From positions 1 to 39,841 of the forward strand of contig JBLHRE010000002.1 of NCBI GenBank assembly GCA_047625765.1: a DNA stretch of 39,841 nt, written 5' to 3'. Position numbers and translations under genes: made by a program. The notes under the pieces are model-generated. The model was given only the letters and a program-made list of their open reading frames with translations, was not told the DNA's origin and did no database searches. Position 1 is the first letter of the stretch; every line of letters begins with the position of its first letter. The DNA is from Flavobacteriales bacterium (GTDB taxonomy: Bacteria > Bacteroidota > Bacteroidia > Flavobacteriales > JBLHRE01). This document shows positions 4,487 through 20,312 of the stretch, one piece after another.

Positions 4487-4972
4487 ATGAAATTGAAGTA
4501 TTCTATTGTTACTGTTTTAGCTCTACTGGTAAGCGGATGCCAAGCCCCAAAAGTAGATGAAAGTGTTGCCAAACAAGAAATTAATGCTACGCTAGATTTG
4601 TGGCATGCTGCTGCAAGTGAAGCAGACTTAGAAGTCTATTTCAACTACATCCATCCCAATGGATACTTTTTAGGGACTGATGCTCTTGAAAACTGGGATA
4701 AAACAACTTTCTACAATTTTTCGAAGCCCCATTTTAATACTGCTCCTGCTTGGGCATTTAAGCCACATTCGAGAATGATATTTTTTTCTGAAGATGGAAA
4801 AACAGCTTGGTTTAATGAGCTGTTAGATACTTGGATGGATGCCTGTAGAGGTTCTGGGGTTATGGTGAGGACCGCAGAAGGCTGGAAAATTATGCAATAC
4901 AATTTAGCCATGTTAGTACCTAACGACAAGGTTCAAGACTATCTTAAGGTGTTAGCAGACACTACTAAATAA
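4487..4972 (+). CDS. SnoaL-like / NTF2-fold lipoprotein
   Basis: 161-aa ORF with a lipobox (LLVSGC). LDLWHAAASEADLEVYFNYIHPNGYFLGTD resembles SnoaL_3/DUF4440-type proteins. Confidence 0.6.
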   Translation: MKLKYSIVTVLALLVSGCQAPKVDESVAKQEINATLDLWHAAASEADLEVYFNYIHPNGYFLGTDALENWDKTTFYNFSKPHFNTAPAWAFKPHSRMIFFSEDGKTAWFNELLDTWMDACRGSGVMVRTAEGWKIMQYNLAMLVPNDKVQDYLKVLADTTK

Positions 4973-5976
4973 TGCCAAAACACTTTGATGTAATTATTGT
5001 TGGTGCTGGTCCAGCAGGCTGTATAGCGGCATTAAATATTGCCAAAACCAATCTAAGTGTTGCCTTTCTCGACAAGGCTAGTTTCCCTAGAGATAAGATA
5101 TGCGGAGACGCTATTAGTGGAAATGTAACTTTCGAAGTGAATCGTTTAGAGTCTGGCCTTGTAAATAAGTTCGATGTCTTTCCTAAAAAAAACATGAACC
5201 AAAAGCATTCGTTTTTGGACATTGGTTTACCAAAATCAAACTACGGCATAGATGACCCTGCCTTTATTGCGAATTGATTTCGATAACTTCCTGTTTCTTG
5301 AAGTGATAAAACGCCCCAACATAACTATTTTAGAAGGGAGCGGCTTAAAAAAGCTAAAAACAAGCAACACAGGAGTGAGTGCTGCAACTCAGGAACACCA
5401 CTTTACGGCTGAACTAATCATAGCTGCCGATGGGGCATATTCTACCCTTGCTAAACTTAGCGGTCTCTCAGAAATGGATCCCAAGCATCACAGGGCTGGT
5501 TTGCGCGTTTACTAGGAGAATGTTTTGGGCTTTGATACACAAAACCTAATAGAATTACATTTTTATAAGAATATTCTCCCTAGATATTTATGGGTATTTC
5601 CACTTCCTAACAGTCAGGCGAATGTGGGAATTGGAATGCTATGACGAGCGGAAGAATTGCAGCATTGCATGCCTTAGAAACATTTGAGGCAAAGGATTTC
5701 TCTAAAAATTTTATGAAGCTGTACGATCGTAAAATTTATACCAAAATGGGTACGGATTTTCCCATAAGTCATATGACGCAAAAGCTGATGCGATTTCCTA
5801 AACTCTTTGATTTTGTGGTGAAAAAGGCCAACAAGAATGAAGCGGTAAGAGGCTTATTGATAAACATGTTTAACAATGTAGACATCAAAAAACCGCTCAC
5901 CAAGCCTTCCCTTCTATTTCAAATTAGTATTCAAATAAAAAACCCTGTCTCAGCTAGGCCAAGACAGGGTTCGTAA
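4972..5976 (+). pseudogene. geranylgeranyl reductase family FAD-dependent oxidoreductase, disrupted
   Basis: The FAD motif FDVIIVGAGPAGC lies in frame 1 (4972-5277). The continuation is in frame 2 (5252-5515), with an in-frame TAG at 5513 and then ...YLWVFPLPNSQANVGIGML stop at 5642. The C-terminal part (SGRIAALHALE...) is back in frame 1 from 5641. The segment normally between NVGIG and SGRIAA appears to be missing. Confidence 0.8.
5937..5969 (-). terminator. rho-independent terminator for the OMP gene
   Basis: 8-bp stem ccctgtct/agacaggg (5943-5950 / 5962-5969). An A6 run on the + strand gives a T-run on the minus strand after the hairpin. Confidence 0.65.
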
Positions 5977-9441: not shown

Positions 9442-10953
9442 ATGAGCTATAGTAATTCATTTTTGATTCTAGTTTTTATTTTAGTAAGCAGTGTTTCTGT
9501 TAGTGCTCAAAAAAGAGAATTTAAGCAGTATTTTTTTAATAATGGCAAAGTAGCTAGCGAAGGATATTTGGTAGATGGTAAGCCAGATGGTTTTTGGAAA
9601 AGTTTCTACCAAGATGGCAAGCCTAAATCGCAAGGGGATAGGCTAAATTTCGCTTTAGAAGGACTTTGGAAGTTTTATGATACCCAAGGTTCGTTGAAAG
9701 AAGAAATTGGTTTTAAGGAAGGAAAAAAGCATGGTATTTTTAGGAAATACGAACAAGGATTATTATTGAGCGAATTCTTTTACCTAGAAGAACGACTGGA
9801 TAGTGTTTCTAGGTGGTTTTACCCTACGGGACAAGTAAAACGGTCTGTACCCTTCGATGATAATTTTGAACAAGGAAAAGGCTTTGAATACGCTATTGAT
9901 GGAACCATACTTGCCATGCAAAAATACCGTAGTGGTGTAATGGTTAAAAACCTAAAAATTAACCGGGTCGATAGCGAAGGAAGAAAGCAAGGTTTGTTCA
10001 TGGAATTTTATACCAAAAAAAATACAAAATCAGAAGGAATGTATTTTAACGATTTAAAAGATGGATACTTTAAATATTACTTAGAAGATGGAGGACTGCA
10101 AAAAAACGAAAGATGGATTATGGGTGTTTTACAAACCAATGATGCCAATGCCGGAAGAATTCGTTTATCCGCAACCTACAACGAAGCGGGTTATGTAGAA
10201 AGAATGGGTGGTTATAGAAATGGTAAAATGGATGGTGGGCATAGACTTTTCAACGAAAAGGGTGATGTTATTTTAAATCAGATTTACCAATTGGGCGTAT
10301 TAATTGCAGAAGGGACAGTAGATTCGTTGGGATTGAGACAAGGCGAATGGAAAAGTTATTATGAAAAAGGTGCCTTAAAATCGAAAGGAAATTACCAAGC
10401 AGATAAAAAAATGGATAAGTGGTATTTCTTTTTTATAGACAGTACTTTAGAACAAGTGGGTTCTTATAAAAATGACTTCCCTGATGGATCTTGGAAATGG
10501 TATTTCCAAGGACAGATTTTGCAAAAAGAAGAACGTTATAGAAATGGTTTACTTTCTGGAAATAGTGTGGAATACGATAGTTTCGGAAATGTATTGGCCA
10601 AAGGATCTTATATAGAAGGACAAAAAGATGGAAGATGGATATATGAACTGAACGATCATAAAGAAGTAGGTAGGTACAAGGATGGTTTAATGACTGGAGA
10701 ATGGAATTATTTTTACGAAGGAGGTTACTTACAATTCAATGGTTCTTATATAGATGGAATTAAACACAACAATCATACTTGGTATTATCCAAATAGTAAA
10801 ATTCGTGTAAGTGGTTCTTATTTTTATGGTAGGAAAACTGGTGCCTGGAAATACTACGAAATATCCGGACTATTGATAGTTACAGTTTTTTACGAAAATG
10901 GCGTTGAAACCAAATACAATGGTTCCAAAATTGGAGTGGAGTTGGTGGAGTAG
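9442..10953 (+). CDS. secreted MORN-variant repeat protein (YwqK-like repeats)
   Basis: Signal peptide followed by more than 15 tandem repeats of the G-x-W-x-x-Y/F-Y-x-x-G type (DGFWKSFYQDGK, GEWKSYYEKGA, GSWKWYFQGQ and others). Confidence 0.8.
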   Translation: MSYSNSFLILVFILVSSVSVSAQKREFKQYFFNNGKVASEGYLVDGKPDGFWKSFYQDGKPKSQGDRLNFALEGLWKFYDTQGSLKEEIGFKEGKKHGIFRKYEQGLLLSEFFYLEERLDSVSRWFYPTGQVKRSVPFDDNFEQGKGFEYAIDGTILAMQKYRSGVMVKNLKINRVDSEGRKQGLFMEFYTKKNTKSEGMYFNDLKDGYFKYYLEDGGLQKNERWIMGVLQTNDANAGRIRLSATYNEAGYVERMGGYRNGKMDGGHRLFNEKGDVILNQIYQLGVLIAEGTVDSLGLRQGEWKSYYEKGALKSKGNYQADKKMDKWYFFFIDSTLEQVGSYKNDFPDGSWKWYFQGQILQKEERYRNGLLSGNSVEYDSFGNVLAKGSYIEGQKDGRWIYELNDHKEVGRYKDGLMTGEWNYFYEGGYLQFNGSYIDGIKHNNHTWYYPNSKIRVSGSYFYGRKTGAWKYYEISGLLIVTVFYENGVETKYNGSKIGVELVE

Positions 10954-11222
10954 TGGAGGTGCTTAAATTAAAAAAGTAAAATAGTTGTTATAAACTATTT
11001 ATAATTTCATTTTTAGCTTTTTAATGTATCAGCTAGTTTTGTGAAACCAAAGGCCAGGAACATACCAGATATAATAAATATTAAAGCAAAATTCTTAAGA
11101 AAAGTCATTTCAGTAAACTCATTTATTGCGACTAAGATAATGGCCACAATAATGATTACAAGTGAGGTAAAATTTTCTTATTCATAGGTTAATATTATAT
11201 TTTTTTAAGTTTATTGCTAACG
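10880..11222 (+). repeat. direct repeat copy A (~340 bp)
   Basis: Aligns by eye with 12595-12922 at roughly 85-90% identity with a few indels. It covers the last ~75 nt of the MORN gene, its stop, and a small minus-strand ORF. Weaker similarity may extend about 70 nt further. Confidence 0.9.
11013..11185 (-). pseudogene. disrupted copy of small hydrophobic ORF (paralogue of 12727-12894)
   Basis: Relative to copy B it has a 6-nt insertion and a 1-nt deletion near the 5' end. Reading from the ATG at 11185 therefore hits TAA after 9 codons (MNKKILPHL*). Confidence 0.4.
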
Positions 11223-11370: not shown

Positions 11371-12411
11371 TTAAGCTTTGGCTTTTCCGTAATATTTTTT
11401 CCGCAACCAAAAAGAAACACGAACTAATAAAATCAATGCAGGAACTTCAACTAAAGGACCAATTACTCCTGCAAATGCTTGTCCTGAATTTAGACCAAAA
11501 ACTGCTATTGCAACTGCAATCGCTAATTCAAAATTATTTCCGGCTGCTGTAAAAGCGACTGCTGCTGTTTTGTCGTATTCTGCTCCTGTTGCTTTGGTAA
11601 CGAAAAATCCAATGATAAACATTAATGTAAAATAGATAAGTAAAGGAACTGCAATGATTAAAACATCCATTGGGATTTCCACAATTAATTCTCCTTTTAG
11701 TGAGAACATAACCACAATCGTAAACAAAAGTGCAATCAATGTCATTGGCGAAATAGCCGGAATAAACTTTTTAGTGTACCAATCTTCGCCTTTAAGTTTT
11801 ACCAATATTAGTCTGCTTAAAATTCCCATTACAAACGGAATACCTAAATAAATGGCAACACTTTCTGCAATTGTTCCGATTGAAATATCTATAATAGCAC
11901 CATCAAATCCAAAATATGGTGGAAGAACTGTTATGAAAATCCACGCATAAAAACTGTATGCAAATACCTGAAAAATAGTGTTTAATGCAACTAGACCTGC
12001 TCCATATTCGCTACTTCCTTCTGCAAGGTCGTTCCAAACCAAAACCATTGCAATACAACGAGCCAAACCAATCAAAATAAGTCCGACCATATATTCTGGA
12101 TAATCATGCAAAAATGTAATTGCCAAAACAAACATTAAAACAGGACCAATTATCCAATTTAGAATAAGTGAAATAGAAAGAATTTTTGTATTCCTAAAAA
12201 CTTTTGGTAATAGGGCATAGTTGACTTTTGCCAAAGGTGGATACATCATTAAAATCAAACCGATTGCAATTGGAATATTTGTTGTTCCGCTACTCAATGA
12301 GTTTATAATGTTTGGAAATGTTGGAATAAAATATCCAAGTCCAACTCCAAAAGCCATTGCAAAAAATATCCAAAGGGTTAGATTACTGTCAAGAAAACTT
12401 AATTTTTTCAT
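11371..12411 (-). CDS. acr3: ACR3 family arsenite efflux transporter
   Basis: 346-aa polytopic membrane protein. It carries the ACR3 signature [16 protein letters not shown] and an MMYPPLAKV segment. Confidence 0.9.
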
Positions 12412-12592: not shown

Positions 12593-12596
12593 TTTT

Positions 12597-12680
12597 ACAG
12601 GTTTTTACGAAAATGGCATTGAAACCAAATATAATGGTTCTAAAATTGGGGTGGATTGGTGGAGTAGTGGAGGTGCTTAA
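12597..12680 (+). pseudogene. orphan 3' fragment of a MORN-repeat gene
   Basis: Translates to TGFYENGIETKYNGSKIGVDWWSSGGA*, against TVFYENGVETKYNGSKIGVELVE* at the end of the intact gene. A 1-nt indel changes the last residues. There is no upstream coding continuation. Confidence 0.6.
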
Positions 12681-12726
12681 ACTAAAAAAGCAAAATAGTT
12701 ATTATAAGTTATTTAAAATTTCATTT

Positions 12727-12894
12727 TTAGCTTTTTGGTTTATCAGCTAGTTTTGTGAGCCCAAAGCCCAGGAACATACCCGCGATAATAAATATTAAAG
12801 CAAAGTCCTTAATAAAAGTCATTTCAGTAAACTCATTTATTGCTACTAAGATAATAGTGACAATAATGATTATAAGTGGGGGTAAAATTTTCAT
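12727..12894 (-). CDS. 55-aa small two-helix membrane protein (intact copy)
   Basis: MKILPPLIIIIVTIILVAINEFTEMTFIKDFALIFIIAGMFLGFGLTKLADKPKS, with ATG at 12894 and TAA at 12727. It is below the ORF-track length cutoff. Confidence 0.4.
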   Translation of the reverse strand: MKILPPLIIIIVTIILVAINEFTEMTFIKDFALIFIIAGMFLGFGLTKLADKPKS

Positions 12895-13016
12895 AGGTTA
12901 ATATTATATTTTTATTGCTAACGGTCTCGTGTATGAGTAGTAGCGGATTTTAACTCACTTAACTTTCAGTTTTGCACTGAGCCAAAGCGTTGTATTTTGT
13001 TTTTAACTTAATTTAC

Positions 13017-13043
13017 TTTTAAAAGCTAAATCAAATATTTAGC
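13017..13043 (-). terminator. weak AT-rich hairpin downstream of the two-gene operon
   Basis: 7-bp stem gctaaat/atttagc (13025-13031 / 13037-13043), followed by TTTT on the minus strand. Confidence 0.3.
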
Positions 13044-13105
13044 GGTGTTAATTAATTGCTTTAAAATTTCAATTTACTACCAAAACCCACATTAACTATA
13101 GGCAG

Positions 13106-13115
13106 TGTTAGGGGG
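13106..13115. repeat. left arm of perfect 10-bp inverted repeat GTTAGGGGGA
   Basis: Reverse complement of 14465-14474. It overlaps the stop codon and last two codons of the 125-aa ORF. Confidence 0.85.
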
Positions 13116-13485
13116 ATTTTTTTTCTGGTTTTGGAGGTTCGTATGTCCAGGAATCATTTTTATGTAATGCACCCATCAGTCTTCCAATTTTACCAACTGA
13201 AATTTCATCATCTAATTCATTACGTTCTATACATCTTCCTTCTTGTTTTGCAACGAGAAAGAATCCACCATTGTTTAATAAACTGGGTTTGTTTAAATAG
13301 GAATAATGATTGAAATTATAATCATCACTAAGTACAATTATTAAATCGGAGTAACCAAAATTTCTTTTAATTTTATATGCGTAGAACTCATCAGAATCTG
13401 CCGATTCAATTGATTTTACAGCACTATGGTTCATTAATGCTCTTTCAATGAAGGGTCTGATTGAATAATGTAAATCTTTACCCAT
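13108..13485 (-). CDS. 125-aa hypothetical protein, distal gene of the NTase operon
   Basis: Its ATG at 13485 overlaps the upstream ORF by 8 nt, consistent with translational coupling. No signal peptide or TM helix. The D47 (SDLIIVL) ... K80/E82 (FFLVAKQEG) pattern is only loosely nuclease-fold-like, so no family is assigned. Confidence 0.6.
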   Translation of the reverse strand: MGKDLHYSIRPFIERALMNHSAVKSIESADSDEFYAYKIKRNFGYSDLIIVLSDDYNFNHYSYLNKPSLLNNGGFFLVAKQEGRCIERNELDDEISVGKIGRLMGALHKNDSWTYEPPKPEKKSP

Positions 13486-14455
13486 TTCCTTTTAATTTAT
13501 ATGTGTTATATGATATGAATTCTTCAAATAAGACCTTTTCGTTTTTTTGGAAAGGAGTAAGGTGAAGATTAGATTTAAATTTAAGTTTAAAGTCCATCTT
13601 TAGAATTTCAATATCTTTTAAATGTCTTTTATTTAGCATAACATCAAACAGTATAACTATATCAAAATCATTTGCTTTTTCTGGAATGAAAAGAGATGAA
13701 CCGAATAAGTACCATTCATTTTTAACTTGTTTTAATAATCGTTTTTTGACCCATTTTTTTCTCTTCAATAGATGCGCTGAATTGACAGAAGAATTGTAAC
13801 ATTCTTTTGTTATTAAATCGCAGAAATCTGTTGGGAAACGATGTTGCGAATAATCAAACTCTTCATTTATCGTATGTTCTTGAACAGCATCTATATGCAT
13901 TATCATTTGATCTGCCAATTCAGATTTTTCTCGATCAAATAGAGACTTATTTTCTATCAATATCGATTTTATTTTCTCATTGTTTGGTATGATTGTTTCG
14001 CTTCTGTATTTGTACCACATAGTCATATCTGTCCTCAGTAAATCTGAGAATTCAGCACCAGAATTTGGTCCAACCGTTTTGAAAATGTATTGATTGTCTT
14101 TTAGAATGGGAAAAATTAATTTGCATACCTCGTAAAATGAAGAGCATTTTGTTTCTACTATATTTAAGTACTCTGCTTTTTCTACTTGATTAAATTTCAA
14201 CTCAAGTAATCTGTTGTATGTGTTATAAATTAGTGCAATTATAATTATGAAGAGGCCAATTAACCAATCATACTTTCCAATTACTGGAATATAAATGTTT
14301 TTGAAGTTTTCATTTGTGCTCTCTATACCAAGATTTAATAGATCTAACCAAAAAGGTTTTGATAATAATGTTAAACCCACGCCTACAATTAAAGAGATTA
14401 TCGTGTTGTAGCGTTTAGGCCTTAGTAACAAATATATTTTTACAATTTTCTCCAA
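13478..14455 (-). CDS. 2-TM membrane protein with C-terminal minimal (Pol-beta-type) nucleotidyltransferase motif
   Basis: Predicted TM helices at about aa 18-32 and 64-77. WYLFGSSLFIPEKANDFDIVILFD (aa 248-271) fits hG[GS]-x9-13-Dh[DE]h. The start is TTG (14455), preceded by an A-rich tract, with no in-frame ATG nearby. Very AT-rich. Confidence 0.7.
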   Translation of the reverse strand: MEKIVKIYLLLRPKRYNTIISLIVGVGLTLLSKPFWLDLLNLGIESTNENFKNIYIPVIGKYDWLIGLFIIIIALIYNTYNRLLELKFNQVEKAEYLNIVETKCSSFYEVCKLIFPILKDNQYIFKTVGPNSGAEFSDLLRTDMTMWYKYRSETIIPNNEKIKSILIENKSLFDREKSELADQMIMHIDAVQEHTINEEFDYSQHRFPTDFCDLITKECYNSSVNSAHLLKRKKWVKKRLLKQVKNEWYLFGSSLFIPEKANDFDIVILFDVMLNKRHLKDIEILKMDFKLKFKSNLHLTPFQKNEKVLFEEFISYNTYKLKGNG

Positions 14456-14497: not shown

Positions 14498-14505
14498 CAA
14501 ATGTA
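14498..14505 (-). promoter_or_regulatory. -7 box TACATTTG for the two-gene operon
   Basis: caaatgta on the + strand is TAcaTTTG on the minus strand, about 43 nt upstream of the TTG start. A TTTG lies 15 nt further upstream, which is a shorter spacer than typical. Confidence 0.35.
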
Positions 14506-14653: not shown

Positions 14654-14691
14654 AAAAAACCCGTCTTGGTTTTACCAAGACGGGTTTTTTT
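14654..14691 (-). terminator. rho-independent terminator just 3' of tRNA-Cys (bidirectional shape)
   Basis: 11-bp stem cccgtcttggt/accaagacggg (14660-14670 / 14674-14684) with a 3-nt loop, flanked by A6 and T7 runs. Confidence 0.75.
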
Positions 14692-14692
14692 G

Positions 14693-14766
14693 TGGAGGTC
14701 ACGAGCGGATTCGAACCGCTGTACATGGTTTTGCAGACCATTGCCTAGCCACTCGGCCACGTGACC
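14693..14766 (-). tRNA. tRNA-Cys (anticodon GCA), CCA encoded
   Basis: The reverse complement reads GGTCACGTGGCCGAGTGGCTAGGCAATGGTCTGCAAAACCATGTACAGCGGTTCGAATCCGCTCGTGACCTCCA. It has a 7-bp acceptor stem GGTCACG/CGTGACC, an anticodon stem ATGGT/ACCAT with loop CTGCAAA, and a T-arm AGCGG-TTCGAAT-CCGCT. Confidence 0.95.
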
Positions 14767-16890: not shown

Positions 16891-16966
16891 CCATTCTATA
16901 CCAAATCAACGTTATTTAAAAGTGTTTAAGGCACTGCAAATAAGATTACTTGCTGTTATTATTTAC

Positions 16967-16974
16967 TACTTTTG
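16967..16974 (+). promoter_or_regulatory. -7 box TACTTTTG immediately upstream of the ATG at 16980
   Basis: Exact TAnnTTTG ending 5 nt before the ATG. This implies a leaderless or near-leaderless mRNA if that ATG is used. Confidence 0.4.
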
Positions 16975-16979
16975 CAAGT

Positions 16980-19900
16980 ATGCAGAACTCCTATCTATAT
17001 CTCATCAATAAATTAGATGCTTTTATCAAGCGGTTTTATAAAAACCGCCTGTTAAAAGGCTTTATCTATTCATTAGCTTTATGGTTGAGTTTTTACTTGA
17101 TTGTTGCTTTTGCTGAATATTTTTTTCGTTTTGACACCCTTACCAGAACCGTACTTTTTTATCTGTTTGTAATAGTAAATGGCGCAATAGGATACAAGTA
17201 TTTGGTTGTTCCAATTTTGCGCCTGTATCAGATCGGAGATAGAATATCGCACCAACAAGCAGCGGGAATATTAGGGAATCATTTTCCAGAGGTAAGCGAC
17301 AAACTTTTAAACCTTTTGCAATTAAATTCTGATGCTGGAAATAATGACTTGGCTATGGCAAGTGTTATTCAAAAGTCGGAAGATTTGAAATTGGTTAATT
17401 TCTCAAATGCCATTGATTTTAAAGCGAACAAGAAGTATTTGAAATATGCAAGTATCCCGGTTTTGGTGATTCTTATTTTATTGGTTTCTGGCAGAAAGGA
17501 AATTCTGAGTTCTGCTACCCATAGAATCATTAACCATACAGAATCATTTGTGCCACCACCACCATTTGTATTAGAGATTGTTAATGAGGAGCTTACGGGC
17601 AGAGTAGGGTCTAATTTTGATCTGCGGGTAAAGCTTATTGGTGATACTTCGCCAGAGAAACTGTTTGTTGTTTTTAATGGACAACGTTATCAATCTTCTA
17701 AATTTAATACGGGTGAGTTTGGATTTAGCTTCAAAAATCTATCGAGAGACATTTCATTCCGCATAGAATCTGGAGTAGTAAAAAGCGAAGATTTTCTTTT
17801 GAAGGTGGTTCCTTCTCCTATCATTTCCAATTTCCAGGTTGATTTGGATTATCCTAAGTACACAGGTATAAAAGACGAACTGTTAGAAAACATTGGTGAT
17901 CTATCCATTCCAGCAGGAACCATAATAAAATGGAAAGTTGCGACTAAGAATGTAGACCAGCTTATCCTAAAGGCTACTGATTCGGTATTGATTGCAGATA
18001 AGGGAGGCAATGGTTTTTATGCATTGGAGTACCAATCAAATACACCGTTTAAATATACCTTATCTACTGAAAATCAATTTGTTAAAGATAATTTATCGCT
18101 GGAATACTCTGTTGATATTATTGCTGATTTATACCCAAGAATCAATGTGAAGTCTATTAAGGATTCGTTGGACTTGCAGAATTATTATTTCTCTGGATTG
18201 ATAAATGATGACTACGGATTTAGTAATTTAAGTTTGAAATACCGAAAATCTGGCGATAAAGAGTTTAATTCTAAAAGGCTCGATATTCCGACAGGGACAA
18301 CGAACCATCCATTTTTTTACTACTGGGATTTAAAAACAGATTCATTGGAACAAGGATCAACTTACGAGTATTATTTTCAGGTTTTTGACAATGATGGGGT
18401 TAATGGTTGCAAGTCTGCCCGCACAAATTTGGCAATTCTTAAAGTACTAAGTAAAGAAGATTTAAGAGACAAAAAGAGTAAGGATGATGCAGATTTAAAG
18501 AAGGATCTTTTCGAGGCGGTAAACGAGGCCAAGGTAATTAAGGACGAAATAGCGAAGCTGCACAAAGACCTGTTGCAAAAGAAAAAAATGACCTGGCAGG
18601 ACGAGGAAAGATTAAAGAAAATATTAGAGCAACAAAAGAAATTAGAGCAGAAGGTACAGAAGCTGGCAGACGAACAAAAAAAGAACAATGACAAGCGTTC
18701 TTCATTAAGTCCCGTGGAAGAACGCTTACTTGAAAAGCAAAAGCGATTGGAACAATTGTTTAACGAAGTTTTAAGTGAAGAAAATAAGGAGATGTTGCGT
18801 GAAATGGAGGAACTGATGAAGAACCTCGACAAAGAATCTTTGGAAAAGGACTTGGAAAAATTGCAGTTGAAGAATGAGAATATTGAGAAAGAATTGGATA
18901 GGAATTTAGAGCTTTTTAAAGAATTGGAATTTGAGCAGAAATTGGAAGAGCAAATCCAACGCTTAGATGAACTGTCAGAAGAGCAAGACGCGTTGAACAA
19001 GGAGCTTGAAAACTCCGACAAGAAGGATTTGGATAAATTAAAAGAGAAGCAAGATTCATTAAATAAGAAATTTGAGAAGTTTTCTGAAGAAGAAAGAAAG
19101 CTAGAGGATTTGAATGATGCTTTAGAAAAACCTAAAAAGTTACCAAATAACGAAGAAAAAGAGCAAGAGGTAAAAGAAGATATGGAAGGTGCATCCGAAA
19201 AGATGGAATCTGGAGATAAAAAAGATTCGGATAAAAAACAAAAAGATGCCAAGAAAGGCATGGATGAAATGAAGGAAGAAATGGAAGGGATGCAAGGACA
19301 GATGGCAGCCGCTAAGCAATCAGAGGACATGGAGGCTCTAAGACAGCTTTTAGACAACCTTGTCAAGCTTTCCTTAGACCAGGAAGGAGTGATGGATGAT
19401 CTTGCTTCTACCGAAGGGTCTGACCCTCGTTACAAAGCCATCATTAGAAATCAATATAGAATACAAGAGGAGTCTGTTTTAATACAGGACTCTTTGGAGG
19501 CTTTAAGCAAGCGTGTAGAACAGATTGAGCCAGTTGTTACGCGTGAGTTGTCTTTGGTGGTGGATAATATAGGTAAGTCTATTGCATATTTGGCGGACGG
19601 TAAAAGGCCAGAAGCACAATCGCGCCAACAATATGTTATGACATCCGCTAACAATTTGGCATTGCTGTTAGATGAAGTATTGCAGCAAATGCAGAAGCAA
19701 ATGTCAGAGATGATGAAGGGAGATCAGAATTGCCAGAAACCAGGCAATGGCAAACCGTCACCAAGCTCAATGGAAAGCATGAGCAAGAAGCTCAAGGATC
19801 AGTTGGGTAAGATGAAAGGAATGAAGGGGAAAGGCGAAAAGCCAGGCGATAAACCAGGAGGAGGTAAGTCGGGTAAAGGAGGTATGAGTAAAGAGTTTGC

Positions 19901-20312
19901 AAGGATGGCCGCAGAACAGGAGGCATTAAGGCAGCAGTTGCAGGAAATGTCGGATGAGATGTCGAATGGAAAAGGAAATGGAAGCAACCCTATTGATAAA
20001 GCGATTAAGAATCTGGAAGAAAATCAGGATGATTTAATCAACGGTAGAATTACGAAAGAAACCTTAAAGCGCCAAGAAGATATTCTTACGCGCTTGTTGG
20101 AGGCAGAGAAAAGTGAACGCGAAAGAGAGAAAGACAACAAGCGTAAGTCTAATGAGAACTTGATCGATTATGAATTGGATAGCCCGAATGGTAAGCAATT
20201 GGAATTGTTAAAAAAGAACCAGAAGGAACTCTTAAATAAAGCGCCTTTAAATCTTTCTCCGTATTATAAAAACAGATCTAAAGAGTACTTTAAAACACTG
20301 CCTAATGAGTAA
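16980..20312 (+). CDS. large membrane protein with long K/E-rich coiled-coil region (DUF4175-like)
   Basis: N-terminal TM helices, a beta-rich middle and about 1.7 kb of Lys/Glu/Asp/Gln-rich low-complexity sequence. The ORF-track start at 16950 is TTG, so the ATG at 16980 (MQNSYLYLINK) is preferred. The family name is recalled from Bacteroidota synteny with ybeY and is not verified. Confidence 0.75.
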   Translation: MQNSYLYLINKLDAFIKRFYKNRLLKGFIYSLALWLSFYLIVAFAEYFFRFDTLTRTVLFYLFVIVNGAIGYKYLVVPILRLYQIGDRISHQQAAGILGNHFPEVSDKLLNLLQLNSDAGNNDLAMASVIQKSEDLKLVNFSNAIDFKANKKYLKYASIPVLVILILLVSGRKEILSSATHRIINHTESFVPPPPFVLEIVNEELTGRVGSNFDLRVKLIGDTSPEKLFVVFNGQRYQSSKFNTGEFGFSFKNLSRDISFRIESGVVKSEDFLLKVVPSPIISNFQVDLDYPKYTGIKDELLENIGDLSIPAGTIIKWKVATKNVDQLILKATDSVLIADKGGNGFYALEYQSNTPFKYTLSTENQFVKDNLSLEYSVDIIADLYPRINVKSIKDSLDLQNYYFSGLINDDYGFSNLSLKYRKSGDKEFNSKRLDIPTGTTNHPFFYYWDLKTDSLEQGSTYEYYFQVFDNDGVNGCKSARTNLAILKVLSKEDLRDKKSKDDADLKKDLFEAVNEAKVIKDEIAKLHKDLLQKKKMTWQDEERLKKILEQQKKLEQKVQKLADEQKKNNDKRSSLSPVEERLLEKQKRLEQLFNEVLSEENKEMLREMEELMKNLDKESLEKDLEKLQLKNENIEKELDRNLELFKELEFEQKLEEQIQRLDELSEEQDALNKELENSDKKDLDKLKEKQDSLNKKFEKFSEEERKLEDLNDALEKPKKLPNNEEKEQEVKEDMEGASEKMESGDKKDSDKKQKDAKKGMDEMKEEMEGMQGQMAAAKQSEDMEALRQLLDNLVKLSLDQEGVMDDLASTEGSDPRYKAIIRNQYRIQEESVLIQDSLEALSKRVEQIEPVVTRELSLVVDNIGKSIAYLADGKRPEAQSRQQYVMTSANNLALLLDEVLQQMQKQMSEMMKGDQNCQKPGNGKPSPSSMESMSKKLKDQLGKMKGMKGKGEKPGDKPGGGKSGKGGMSKEFARMAAEQEALRQQLQEMSDEMSNGKGNGSNPIDKAIKNLEENQDDLINGRITKETLKRQEDILTRLLEAEKSEREREKDNKRKSNENLIDYELDSPNGKQLELLKKNQKELLNKAPLNLSPYYKNRSKEYFKTLPNE

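Follow-up and report, generated by a model that had tools for sequence, protein, structure and literature searches.

The HEPN-MNT modules (MntA-HepT, HI0073/HI0074; type VII toxin-antitoxin, TA) are among the described systems closest to the locus presented here, and their minimal nucleotidyltransferase (MNT), MntA, is a protein-AMPylating antitoxin that acts on HepT (a protein tyrosine). Two further points of reference are the bSEFIR gene (Millman et al. 2022), for which defence through NAD+ depletion has been validated by experiment (10.1101/2022.05.11.491447; 10.1101/2024.02.11.579819), and Hailong, which is described in a summary of Tan et al. 2025 (PMC13434031) as a transmembrane (TM) effector accompanied by a nucleotidyltransferase (NTase) that restrains it via tyrosine-primed oligo-dA. 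Here we present a two-gene cassette (genes A and B, 13108-14455, minus strand) found in a stretch of 39,841 nucleotides (nt) from a Flavobacteriales bacterium (GCA_047625765.1, contig JBLHRE010000002.1, positions 1 to 39,841; hereafter the window). The original prediction, made from the sequence of the window, had seen in this pair a plausible defence, abortive-infection or TA module, a reading which is supported by our results (the swapping of TIR, SEFIR and nuclease effectors among relatives adding to its strength) and which we consider essentially right but understated. With a probability of roughly 0.6, we argue that A and B together constitute a self-contained, horizontally acquired abortive-infection or TA-like conflict module, and that this module represents, within a large and unnamed three-component family that is horizontally mobile, the branch with TM effectors.

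Gene structure and domain anatomy of the cassette

Open reading frame (ORF) calling placed gene A at 13478..14455 (minus strand, TTG start, 325 amino acids (aa)) and gene B at 13108..13485 (minus strand, ATG start, 125 aa). The two share the octamer ATGGGTAA (13478..13485, minus strand), in which the stop codon of A is embedded in the first codons of B; this 8-nt overlap, seen in the sequence and found identically (-8) in 14 related loci, is a predicted translational coupling, and the single coupled operon of two minus-strand ORFs that had been proposed stands with its coordinates unchanged. By their conservation, both A and B are genuine genes, because they are represented by ~30 (A) and 73 (B) homologue clusters, those of A sharing 45-54% identity and the same aligned start position. 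Moreover, the ‘NG’ that is conserved at the C-terminus of A is the alternate reading frame of the ‘MGK’ with which B opens.

Protein A is built from a TM hairpin, a central helical domain (for which we coined the label MID, A aa ~100-242) and a minimal nucleotidyltransferase (NT), as delineated from its ORF, its homologues and an AlphaFold2 model (mean pLDDT 81.9); hydropathy and model agree on two hydrophobic helices, a five-helix region (aa 107-241) and an alpha/beta unit (aa 245-316). The N-terminal module (aa 1-95; 14171..14455, minus strand), a predicted membrane effector, shows hydrophobic peaks at ~aa 17-37 and ~56-80 (Kyte-Doolittle) and long modelled helices at 18-47 and 63-88, so that the two TM helices of the original prediction are borne out by hydropathy and structure alike. 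Its two hydrophobic helices did not match any of the Pfam SLATT_1-5 models at E<=10. More generally, no family match was obtained for A in the Pfam, PADLOC, NCBIfam and PHROGs models, and a PDB sequence search with the profile of its close homologues returned nothing; the statement that neither protein belongs to a named family was thereby confirmed. In the direct scans of A and B against these four collections the matches to ORF6N (0.019), PDC-S05 (0.022) and SDR (0.085) were at noise level and were rejected. Separately, we observed that four proteins (P0226, P0242, P0245 and P0252) join the TM module of A (KLLxPxFYNxxT...SKPLWL...GL..I..L.YN) to an unrelated C-terminal domain of ~150 aa without Pfam or PADLOC match, and they may represent a second family which uses the same membrane effector.

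The C-terminus of A (aa 243-325; 13481..13729, minus strand) is a minimal (MNT-type) Pol-beta nucleotidyltransferase with intact motifs, as read from motifs, fold and the profiles of relatives. The hG[GS]-then-Dh[DE]h signature is represented by FGSS...DFDIV, in which G252-S253 (13697-13702, minus strand) and D263-F-D265 (13661-13669, minus strand) contribute four positions (G252, S253, D263 and D265) that are the same in all of the 22 close and 31 distant relatives aligned. The modelled succession of strand 248-251, strand 263-269, helix 276-293 and strand 296-302 is that of the Pol-beta core fold, and the top Foldseek matches were MntA (6m6u/7bxo), HI0073 (1no5) and 1ylq (probability 0.94-1.00, target TM-score 0.5-0.6). 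A itself has no Pfam NTP_transf_2 or Polbeta match at E<=10; its relatives provide them, with 7 of 50 matching PF01909 (P0132 at 24.7 bits, cut-off 21) and 4 of 50, plus P0031, matching PF18765. Furthermore, a profile of the broad relatives retrieved 9xbd_E (4.9e-4), 1ylq (2.2e-3) and MntA (0.095) from the PDB. Taken together, these observations uphold the Pol-beta signature that had been noticed at this end of the protein. Matches to designer-PPR entries of the PDB (E 1e-12) were discarded as artefacts, being sums of many repeats with an i-Evalue of ~100 each.

Between the two lies MID (A aa 100-242; 13730..14158, minus strand), all-helical in the model (five helices) and without a Pfam family. 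Its invariant residues (N121, GPNS 129-132, W147, PNN 157-159, H187, H194, Y202 and F207-P208, of which N121, P130, W147, N158, N159, H187, H194, F207 and P208 are invariant family-wide) are located, according to alignment and model, near helix ends and adjoining loops (one of which is flexible), a placement that suggests a pocket. A Pfam scan of ~90 relatives yielded no model covering MID, and the alignment to the PADLOC bSEFIR model reaches into it. What had been described as a helical region without a nameable motif is in fact, judging by its conservation, the hallmark of the family and its best-conserved domain, and in the relatives it is always fused to an effector. As a HEPN domain it does not qualify: it has a Hx6H motif without invariant Arg, no HEPN Pfam match was found, and no HepT appeared among the fold matches listed. 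TRADD-N, for which a similar effector list has been reported (PMC8195603), was considered as a possible name for this central domain and rejected, since it is alpha+beta and occurs in other architectures.

Protein B is a conserved alpha/beta protein (68% mean column identity over its 73 clusters), its conservation exceeding that of A. Residues 1-12 (MGKDLHYSIxPF) and the motifs VLSDxY, GGFxLIAxPE and LLGALN..W.Y are near-invariant, as are Y7 and Y37, Y56 is invariant, and the tail is variable and Lys/Glu-rich. The AlphaFold2 model (mean pLDDT 90.1) has the order alpha-3beta-alpha-3beta-alpha, with the N-terminal peptide modelled as coil; a near-invariant peptide in coil conformation is what would be expected of a substrate or pseudosubstrate, and we take it as a hint in that direction. 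B had been called a small protein of unassignable fold, and so it proved in the searches made: the Pfam, PADLOC, NCBIfam and PHROGs models and the PDB sequence profiles gave no match, and fold searches of the PDB and BFVD gave no probability >0.66 (best TMq/TMt 0.48-0.49, none convincing). An endonuclease-like fold (matches to a tRNA-splicing endonuclease subunit, PaqCI and Cap4 nuclease) is a weak hint on which we do not rely.

The tyrosines of B, together with Y202 of MID and the Lys/Glu-rich tail of B, could also be accommodated by a guard of the Hailong kind, in which NT would constitutively make an oligonucleotide with a tyrosine of B or MID as its primer, this oligonucleotide would bind MID and keep the effector closed, and its removal by phage nucleases or NTP depletion would open the membrane effector; according to the summary in PMC13434031, Hailong likewise pairs a TM effector with a negatively regulating NTase. 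We regard this scheme as quite improbable, given that the PDB fold search was led by MNT antitoxins with no Hailong protein among the matches listed (best 50 PDB folds), that the effectors of the family are diverse with no dedicated channel, and that there is no sign of nucleic-acid-binding surfaces.

A modular family of effector-MID proteins, NT and B

The pair had been taken for an orphan, which it is not: an exhaustive search with the A profile recovered 657 proteins at E<=1e-3. Dissection of the best 150 of these with sub-domain hidden Markov models revealed MID as the constant core, arranged either as X-MID-NT or as X-MID (the protein then ending directly after MID, which thus occupies the C-terminus where NT is lacking). 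The variable N-terminal part (X) most often consists of one or two hydrophobic helices (~65/148 representatives), its alternatives being TIR, SEFIR, SMEK_N (a restriction-endonuclease-type nuclease), HNH, Metallophos (a calcineurin-like phosphoesterase), alpha/beta-hydrolase, EAD1 and EAD7. CBASS (cyclic oligonucleotide-based antiphage signalling systems), Thoeris and Lamassu-type systems draw on this same effector repertoire. The conflict-system reading is strengthened because TIR, SEFIR, nuclease and other effectors replace the TM module in relatives, and the family is tied to a validated defence gene because SEFIR-MID(-NT) relatives match the bSEFIR model.

A pattern-based scan seeded with B, covering one genome per species in 185,579 species, yielded 36 loci (Bacteroidota, Alphaproteobacteria, Chloroflexota and others), in 35 of which the gene immediately before B either encodes X-MID-NT or is a stand-alone NT gene of ~100 aa that is itself preceded by X-MID. 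Conversely, the loci looked up from the side of A (with TM, SEFIR, EAD1, unknown N-terminal part or HNH) have, without exception, a B homologue as the next gene downstream, which is clear behind SEFIR-MID-NT (hhalign 99.9%) and distant behind EAD1-MID-NT (hhalign 90%). The junction preceding B is -8 nt in the window and in the 14 loci with an MGK-type B, and between -4 and +18 nt in the others, except for one of -29 nt. A and B were together in every locus examined, with reading frames mostly overlapping or abutting, and the co-occurrence by which the original prediction proposed to judge the pair is confirmed.

The order HNH-MID, B, NT was encountered in Photorhabdus and on the Acinetobacter plasmid pMsp22. 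These split variants (Photorhabdus luminescens L013:6001-7422; pMsp22 L052:3728-5012) have a divergent B without the MGKDLHYS N-terminus and a stand-alone NT of ~100 aa; the NT gene of pMsp22 (70 codons) abuts IS66 genes and may be truncated. Since NT can be a separate gene, the system is, by its gene order, one of three components. The window shows all the traits by which the effector-MID, NT and B family is recognised (i.e. the MID residues, an NT with GS and DxD, a coupled B), and its cassette belongs, on this comparison, to the branch of that family with TM effectors. Within the literature searched (SEFIR, SMEK, minimal NTase, Hailong), no published description of the MID-NT-B triad was found.

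The effector set, and a build in which an effector is followed by a constant domain, match those of nucleotide-activated effectors, and bring into consideration a circuit resembling CBASS or Pycsar, wherein infection would be sensed via B, NT would make a small nucleotide messenger, MID would act as its receptor (as SAVED, STING or CARF do) and the effector would oligomerise. The split versions keep effector-MID and NT in separate proteins, as receptor and cyclase would be; the invariant polar residues N121, N158, N159, H187, H194 and Y202 cluster where the helix bundle ends by the flexible loop, resembling a ligand pocket; and NT attracts weak PADLOC ‘oligonucleotide-cyclase’ and CdnE matches (marginal in the relatives, E 7e-4 to 0.2). 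However, an NT of ~80 aa is devoid of the helical substrate domain of CD-NTases and finds its nearest folds in protein-AMPylating MNTs, the commonest form, with a single chain that holds both signal generator and receptor, removes amplification, and no similarity to SMODS/CD-NTase, SAVED, CARF or SLATT was detected in A by the Pfam and PADLOC scans. We consider messenger signalling of this type unlikely.

Mobility and genomic surroundings

The low G+C content that had been noted for this part of the window was confirmed (0.27-0.31 over 13000-14400, as against 0.365-0.41 over gltX), with 29.2% for the cassette and 37.2% for the remaining window. The same holds across the family, the cassette lying below its flanks in 30/30 loci (mean difference 10 points, maximum 23). 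The neighbours vary between genomes and are mostly housekeeping genes (HSP70, PolA, ThiC, topoisomerase), and one copy is situated between transposases/insertion sequence (IS) elements on a mobilizable plasmid (pMsp22, Acinetobacter). Because of the low G+C in 30/30 loci, the unrelated neighbours and the plasmid copy between transposases, we regard the cassette as acquired DNA, and its sequence context shows it to behave as mobile and accessory. Some loci adjoin Mrr, PemK, putAbiC and an integrase, others HigB and Gp49-HTH, and another an AAA_15/21 ATPase; at L006:3063-4749, the SMC_N/AAA_15/AAA_21 ATPase gene beside a SEFIR-MID-NT plus B pair and its overlapping 198-aa partner resemble two-gene ATPase defence pairs. 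A phage origin was rejected (tblastn against 50,697 phage records gave nothing, and a search of IMG/VR recovered no relative of B), as was a tRNA-targeted island, any tRNA gene being present in only 1/38 related loci, ~2.6 kb from the cassette; the tRNA-flanking position to which significance had been attached is incidental.

Two further explanations are to be weighed against these data. A solitary cassette among housekeeping genes, AT-rich and in one case plasmid-borne, could be a plain addiction module of the type VII kind, in which NT would act as an antitoxin enzyme against a toxin that is either B or the TM module, with the stabilisation of mobile DNA as its task and no phage-defence role; the order NT-then-B with overlapping frames does parallel mntA-hepT. 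Yet B is not a HEPN protein, neither B nor MID contains Rx4-6H, and the swapping of TIR, SEFIR and EAD domains together with the bSEFIR link points to immunity, which leaves addiction as the only role rather improbable (TA and defence roles are, moreover, compatible). The housekeeping neighbours in the window, and the existence of small NTases (ANT and Lnu, for instance) with small-molecule substrates, would also be in keeping with a housekeeping membrane-bound nucleotidyltransferase (acting e.g. in envelope or antibiotic modification) with B as accessory subunit. This we hold to be extremely improbable, as TIR, SEFIR or nuclease domains take the place of the membrane module in relatives, the distribution is patchy (36 loci in the pattern-based scan of one genome per species from 185,579 species), the G+C is consistently atypical and the genomic context is never conserved. 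The acquired conflict module thus continues to be the reading that we prefer.

In the window, the upstream boundary of the cassette is tRNA-Cys (14693-14766, minus strand; context only), whose terminator, a perfect 17-bp hairpin (14654-14690, minus strand; terminator scan), stands between it and A, and therefore the operon needs its own promoter. A promoter element (-7 box) had been assigned to it, and the octamer TACATTTG, a candidate of the Bacteroidota type, is indeed present (14498..14505, minus strand), 43 nt upstream of the TTG of A and downstream of the tRNA-Cys terminator; the motif TAnnTTTG is not above chance (48 occurrences in the window, 57 expected) and therefore is by itself no promoter evidence, TACATTTG being a candidate by position only. 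The weak hairpin that had been placed downstream of B is absent from the terminator scan of the window, which reported none 3' of B.

Several other features of the window were recorded. A direct repeat of ~300 nt (10880-11176 and 12595-12890; 89-92% identity, spacing 1714 nt) brackets an SBF/ACR3-like transporter gene (11371-12411), each copy containing the 3' end of a MORN-repeat gene and a small hydrophobic ORF (44 aa, 11013-11147; 55 aa, 12727-12894); adjoining the A-B cassette, it looks like a segmental duplication or an insertion scar. A 101-aa ORF (4972-5277), which matches only the first ~30-50 residues (the FAD/NAD-binding Rossmann start) of oxidoreductase families 244-416 positions long, is probably a truncated gene remnant. 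A 69-aa Cys-rich ORF of the CWC family (PF14375; 14788-14997) lies between folB and tRNA-Cys, and a 1120-aa ORF (16950-20312), divergent from gltX, has a hydrophobic N-terminal region and a very long Lys/Glu-rich, coiled-coil-like stretch of low complexity.

Proposed function and comparison with described systems

Within the conflict module that we propose, we infer toxicity, nucleotide acceptor, direction of regulation and trigger as follows. The two-helix module would be the toxic output, which once released would assemble in the inner membrane and depolarise or permeabilise the cell; MID would be the switch, either holding the effector off or driving its assembly; and NT and B would form the control unit, NT transferring a nucleotide to a protein in the way that MntA modifies HepT. 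As acceptor, the best candidates would be the N-terminal K-D-L-H-Y-S peptide of B, Y56 of B or Y202 of MID, and infection would change the modification state, unlocking MID and the effector. We favour nucleotidylylation of B or MID because the nearest relatives of NT AMPylate a protein tyrosine and because the N-terminus of B is invariant and unstructured; as the gate of the module, within the overall estimate given above, we nevertheless put it forward tentatively. Equally tentative is the broader possibility of a hitherto unrecognised immune architecture that spans phyla, comprises three components and includes the ‘single-gene’ bSEFIR as one branch, in which NT would nucleotidylylate the N-terminal peptide of B (or add a protein-primed nucleotide to it) and MID would read this mark and license TM, TIR, SEFIR or nuclease effectors; for swappable effectors, control of this type would be without a described precedent.

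A number of observations weigh against the conflict module and its proposed mechanism. The third catalytic carboxylate of NT is not evident, strand 296-302 (LHLTPFQ) being without an acidic residue; D288 is conserved in the TM clade only, and E306 (near-invariant) and H298 (conserved) are candidate third residues. The bSEFIR gene is reported to work on its own, so that NT and B may be modulators with which the system can dispense, and the presence of MID in the validated Bacillus bSEFIR protein could not be confirmed. The conservation of B appears unusually high for a direct phage sensor. Proteins A and B of the window do not match any defence model of PADLOC, and a toxic or defensive role of the TM-type members is a predicted one. 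The expected enrichment next to known defence genes was not seen: among the four nearest neighbours of 30 loci, taken as the 25 most frequent of 138 families (a selection in which single defence genes could be hidden), there was no sign of defence islands, the nearest neighbours being overwhelmingly housekeeping genes. Finally, the evidence fits protein nucleotidylylation or small-signal synthesis, and negative or positive control, alike.

If the cassette is a defence system, it would offer a compact and widely transferred immune module for Bacteroidota, whose phage defences are poorly charted, and MID and B would be two new domains. SEFIR-MID proteins of the bSEFIR kind would then be the effector arm of a multi-gene system, MNT-type protein nucleotidylylation would extend beyond HEPN toxins, and the switching of SEFIR, TIR and TM effectors would gain a concrete point of entry; with 1.35 kb, the operon is small enough for direct testing.

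Compared with the HEPN-MNT modules, NT has the same minimal Pol-beta fold with hG[GS] and DxD, the NT gene is likewise followed by a small, translationally coupled partner, and a helical domain accompanies NT. The differences are that the partner is not HEPN (B is alpha/beta, and Rx4-6H occurs neither in B nor in MID), that NT mostly follows MID and a distinct effector module within the same chain (with the third carboxylate not evident), and that three modules with a variable effector are involved. The likeness to bSEFIR is twofold, as SEFIR-MID(-NT) relatives match its PADLOC model (up to E 2e-54, reaching into MID) and both place an N-terminal effector before a C-terminal regulatory region. 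However, A of the window has a TM hairpin, matches neither the SEFIR nor the bSEFIR model and shares only MID and NT with the SEFIR relatives, and whereas bSEFIR was described as a single gene, the relatives found here carry NT and B downstream.

Of the kinships that had initially been suggested (SLATT, SMODS and AbiE), none was recovered as detectable similarity; for AbiE, there was no Pfam or PADLOC match (AbiEii DUF1814) and no AbiEi-like gene adjacent. With CBASS and Pycsar systems that employ TM effectors (2TM-SAVED, SLATT-type), the cassette has in common the combination of a Pol-beta NTase and a membrane-helix effector and the same interchangeable effectors (TIR, HNH, restriction-endonuclease-type nuclease, phosphoesterase and hydrolase besides TM), but its NT has only ~80 aa, a single polypeptide commonly carries effector, MID and NT together, and B is without a Cap counterpart. 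Hailong, as far as it is portrayed in PMC13434031 (HalA, a TM channel, and HalB, an NTase), is similar in being a compact operon of a membrane effector and an NTase regulator, and differs in that effector and NTase are fused here, the effector is swappable and a third protein (B) is obligatory. In summary, modular NTase-containing conflict systems are of a kind already known, and what this locus adds are two uncharacterised domains, MID and B, and the three-component family that they define.

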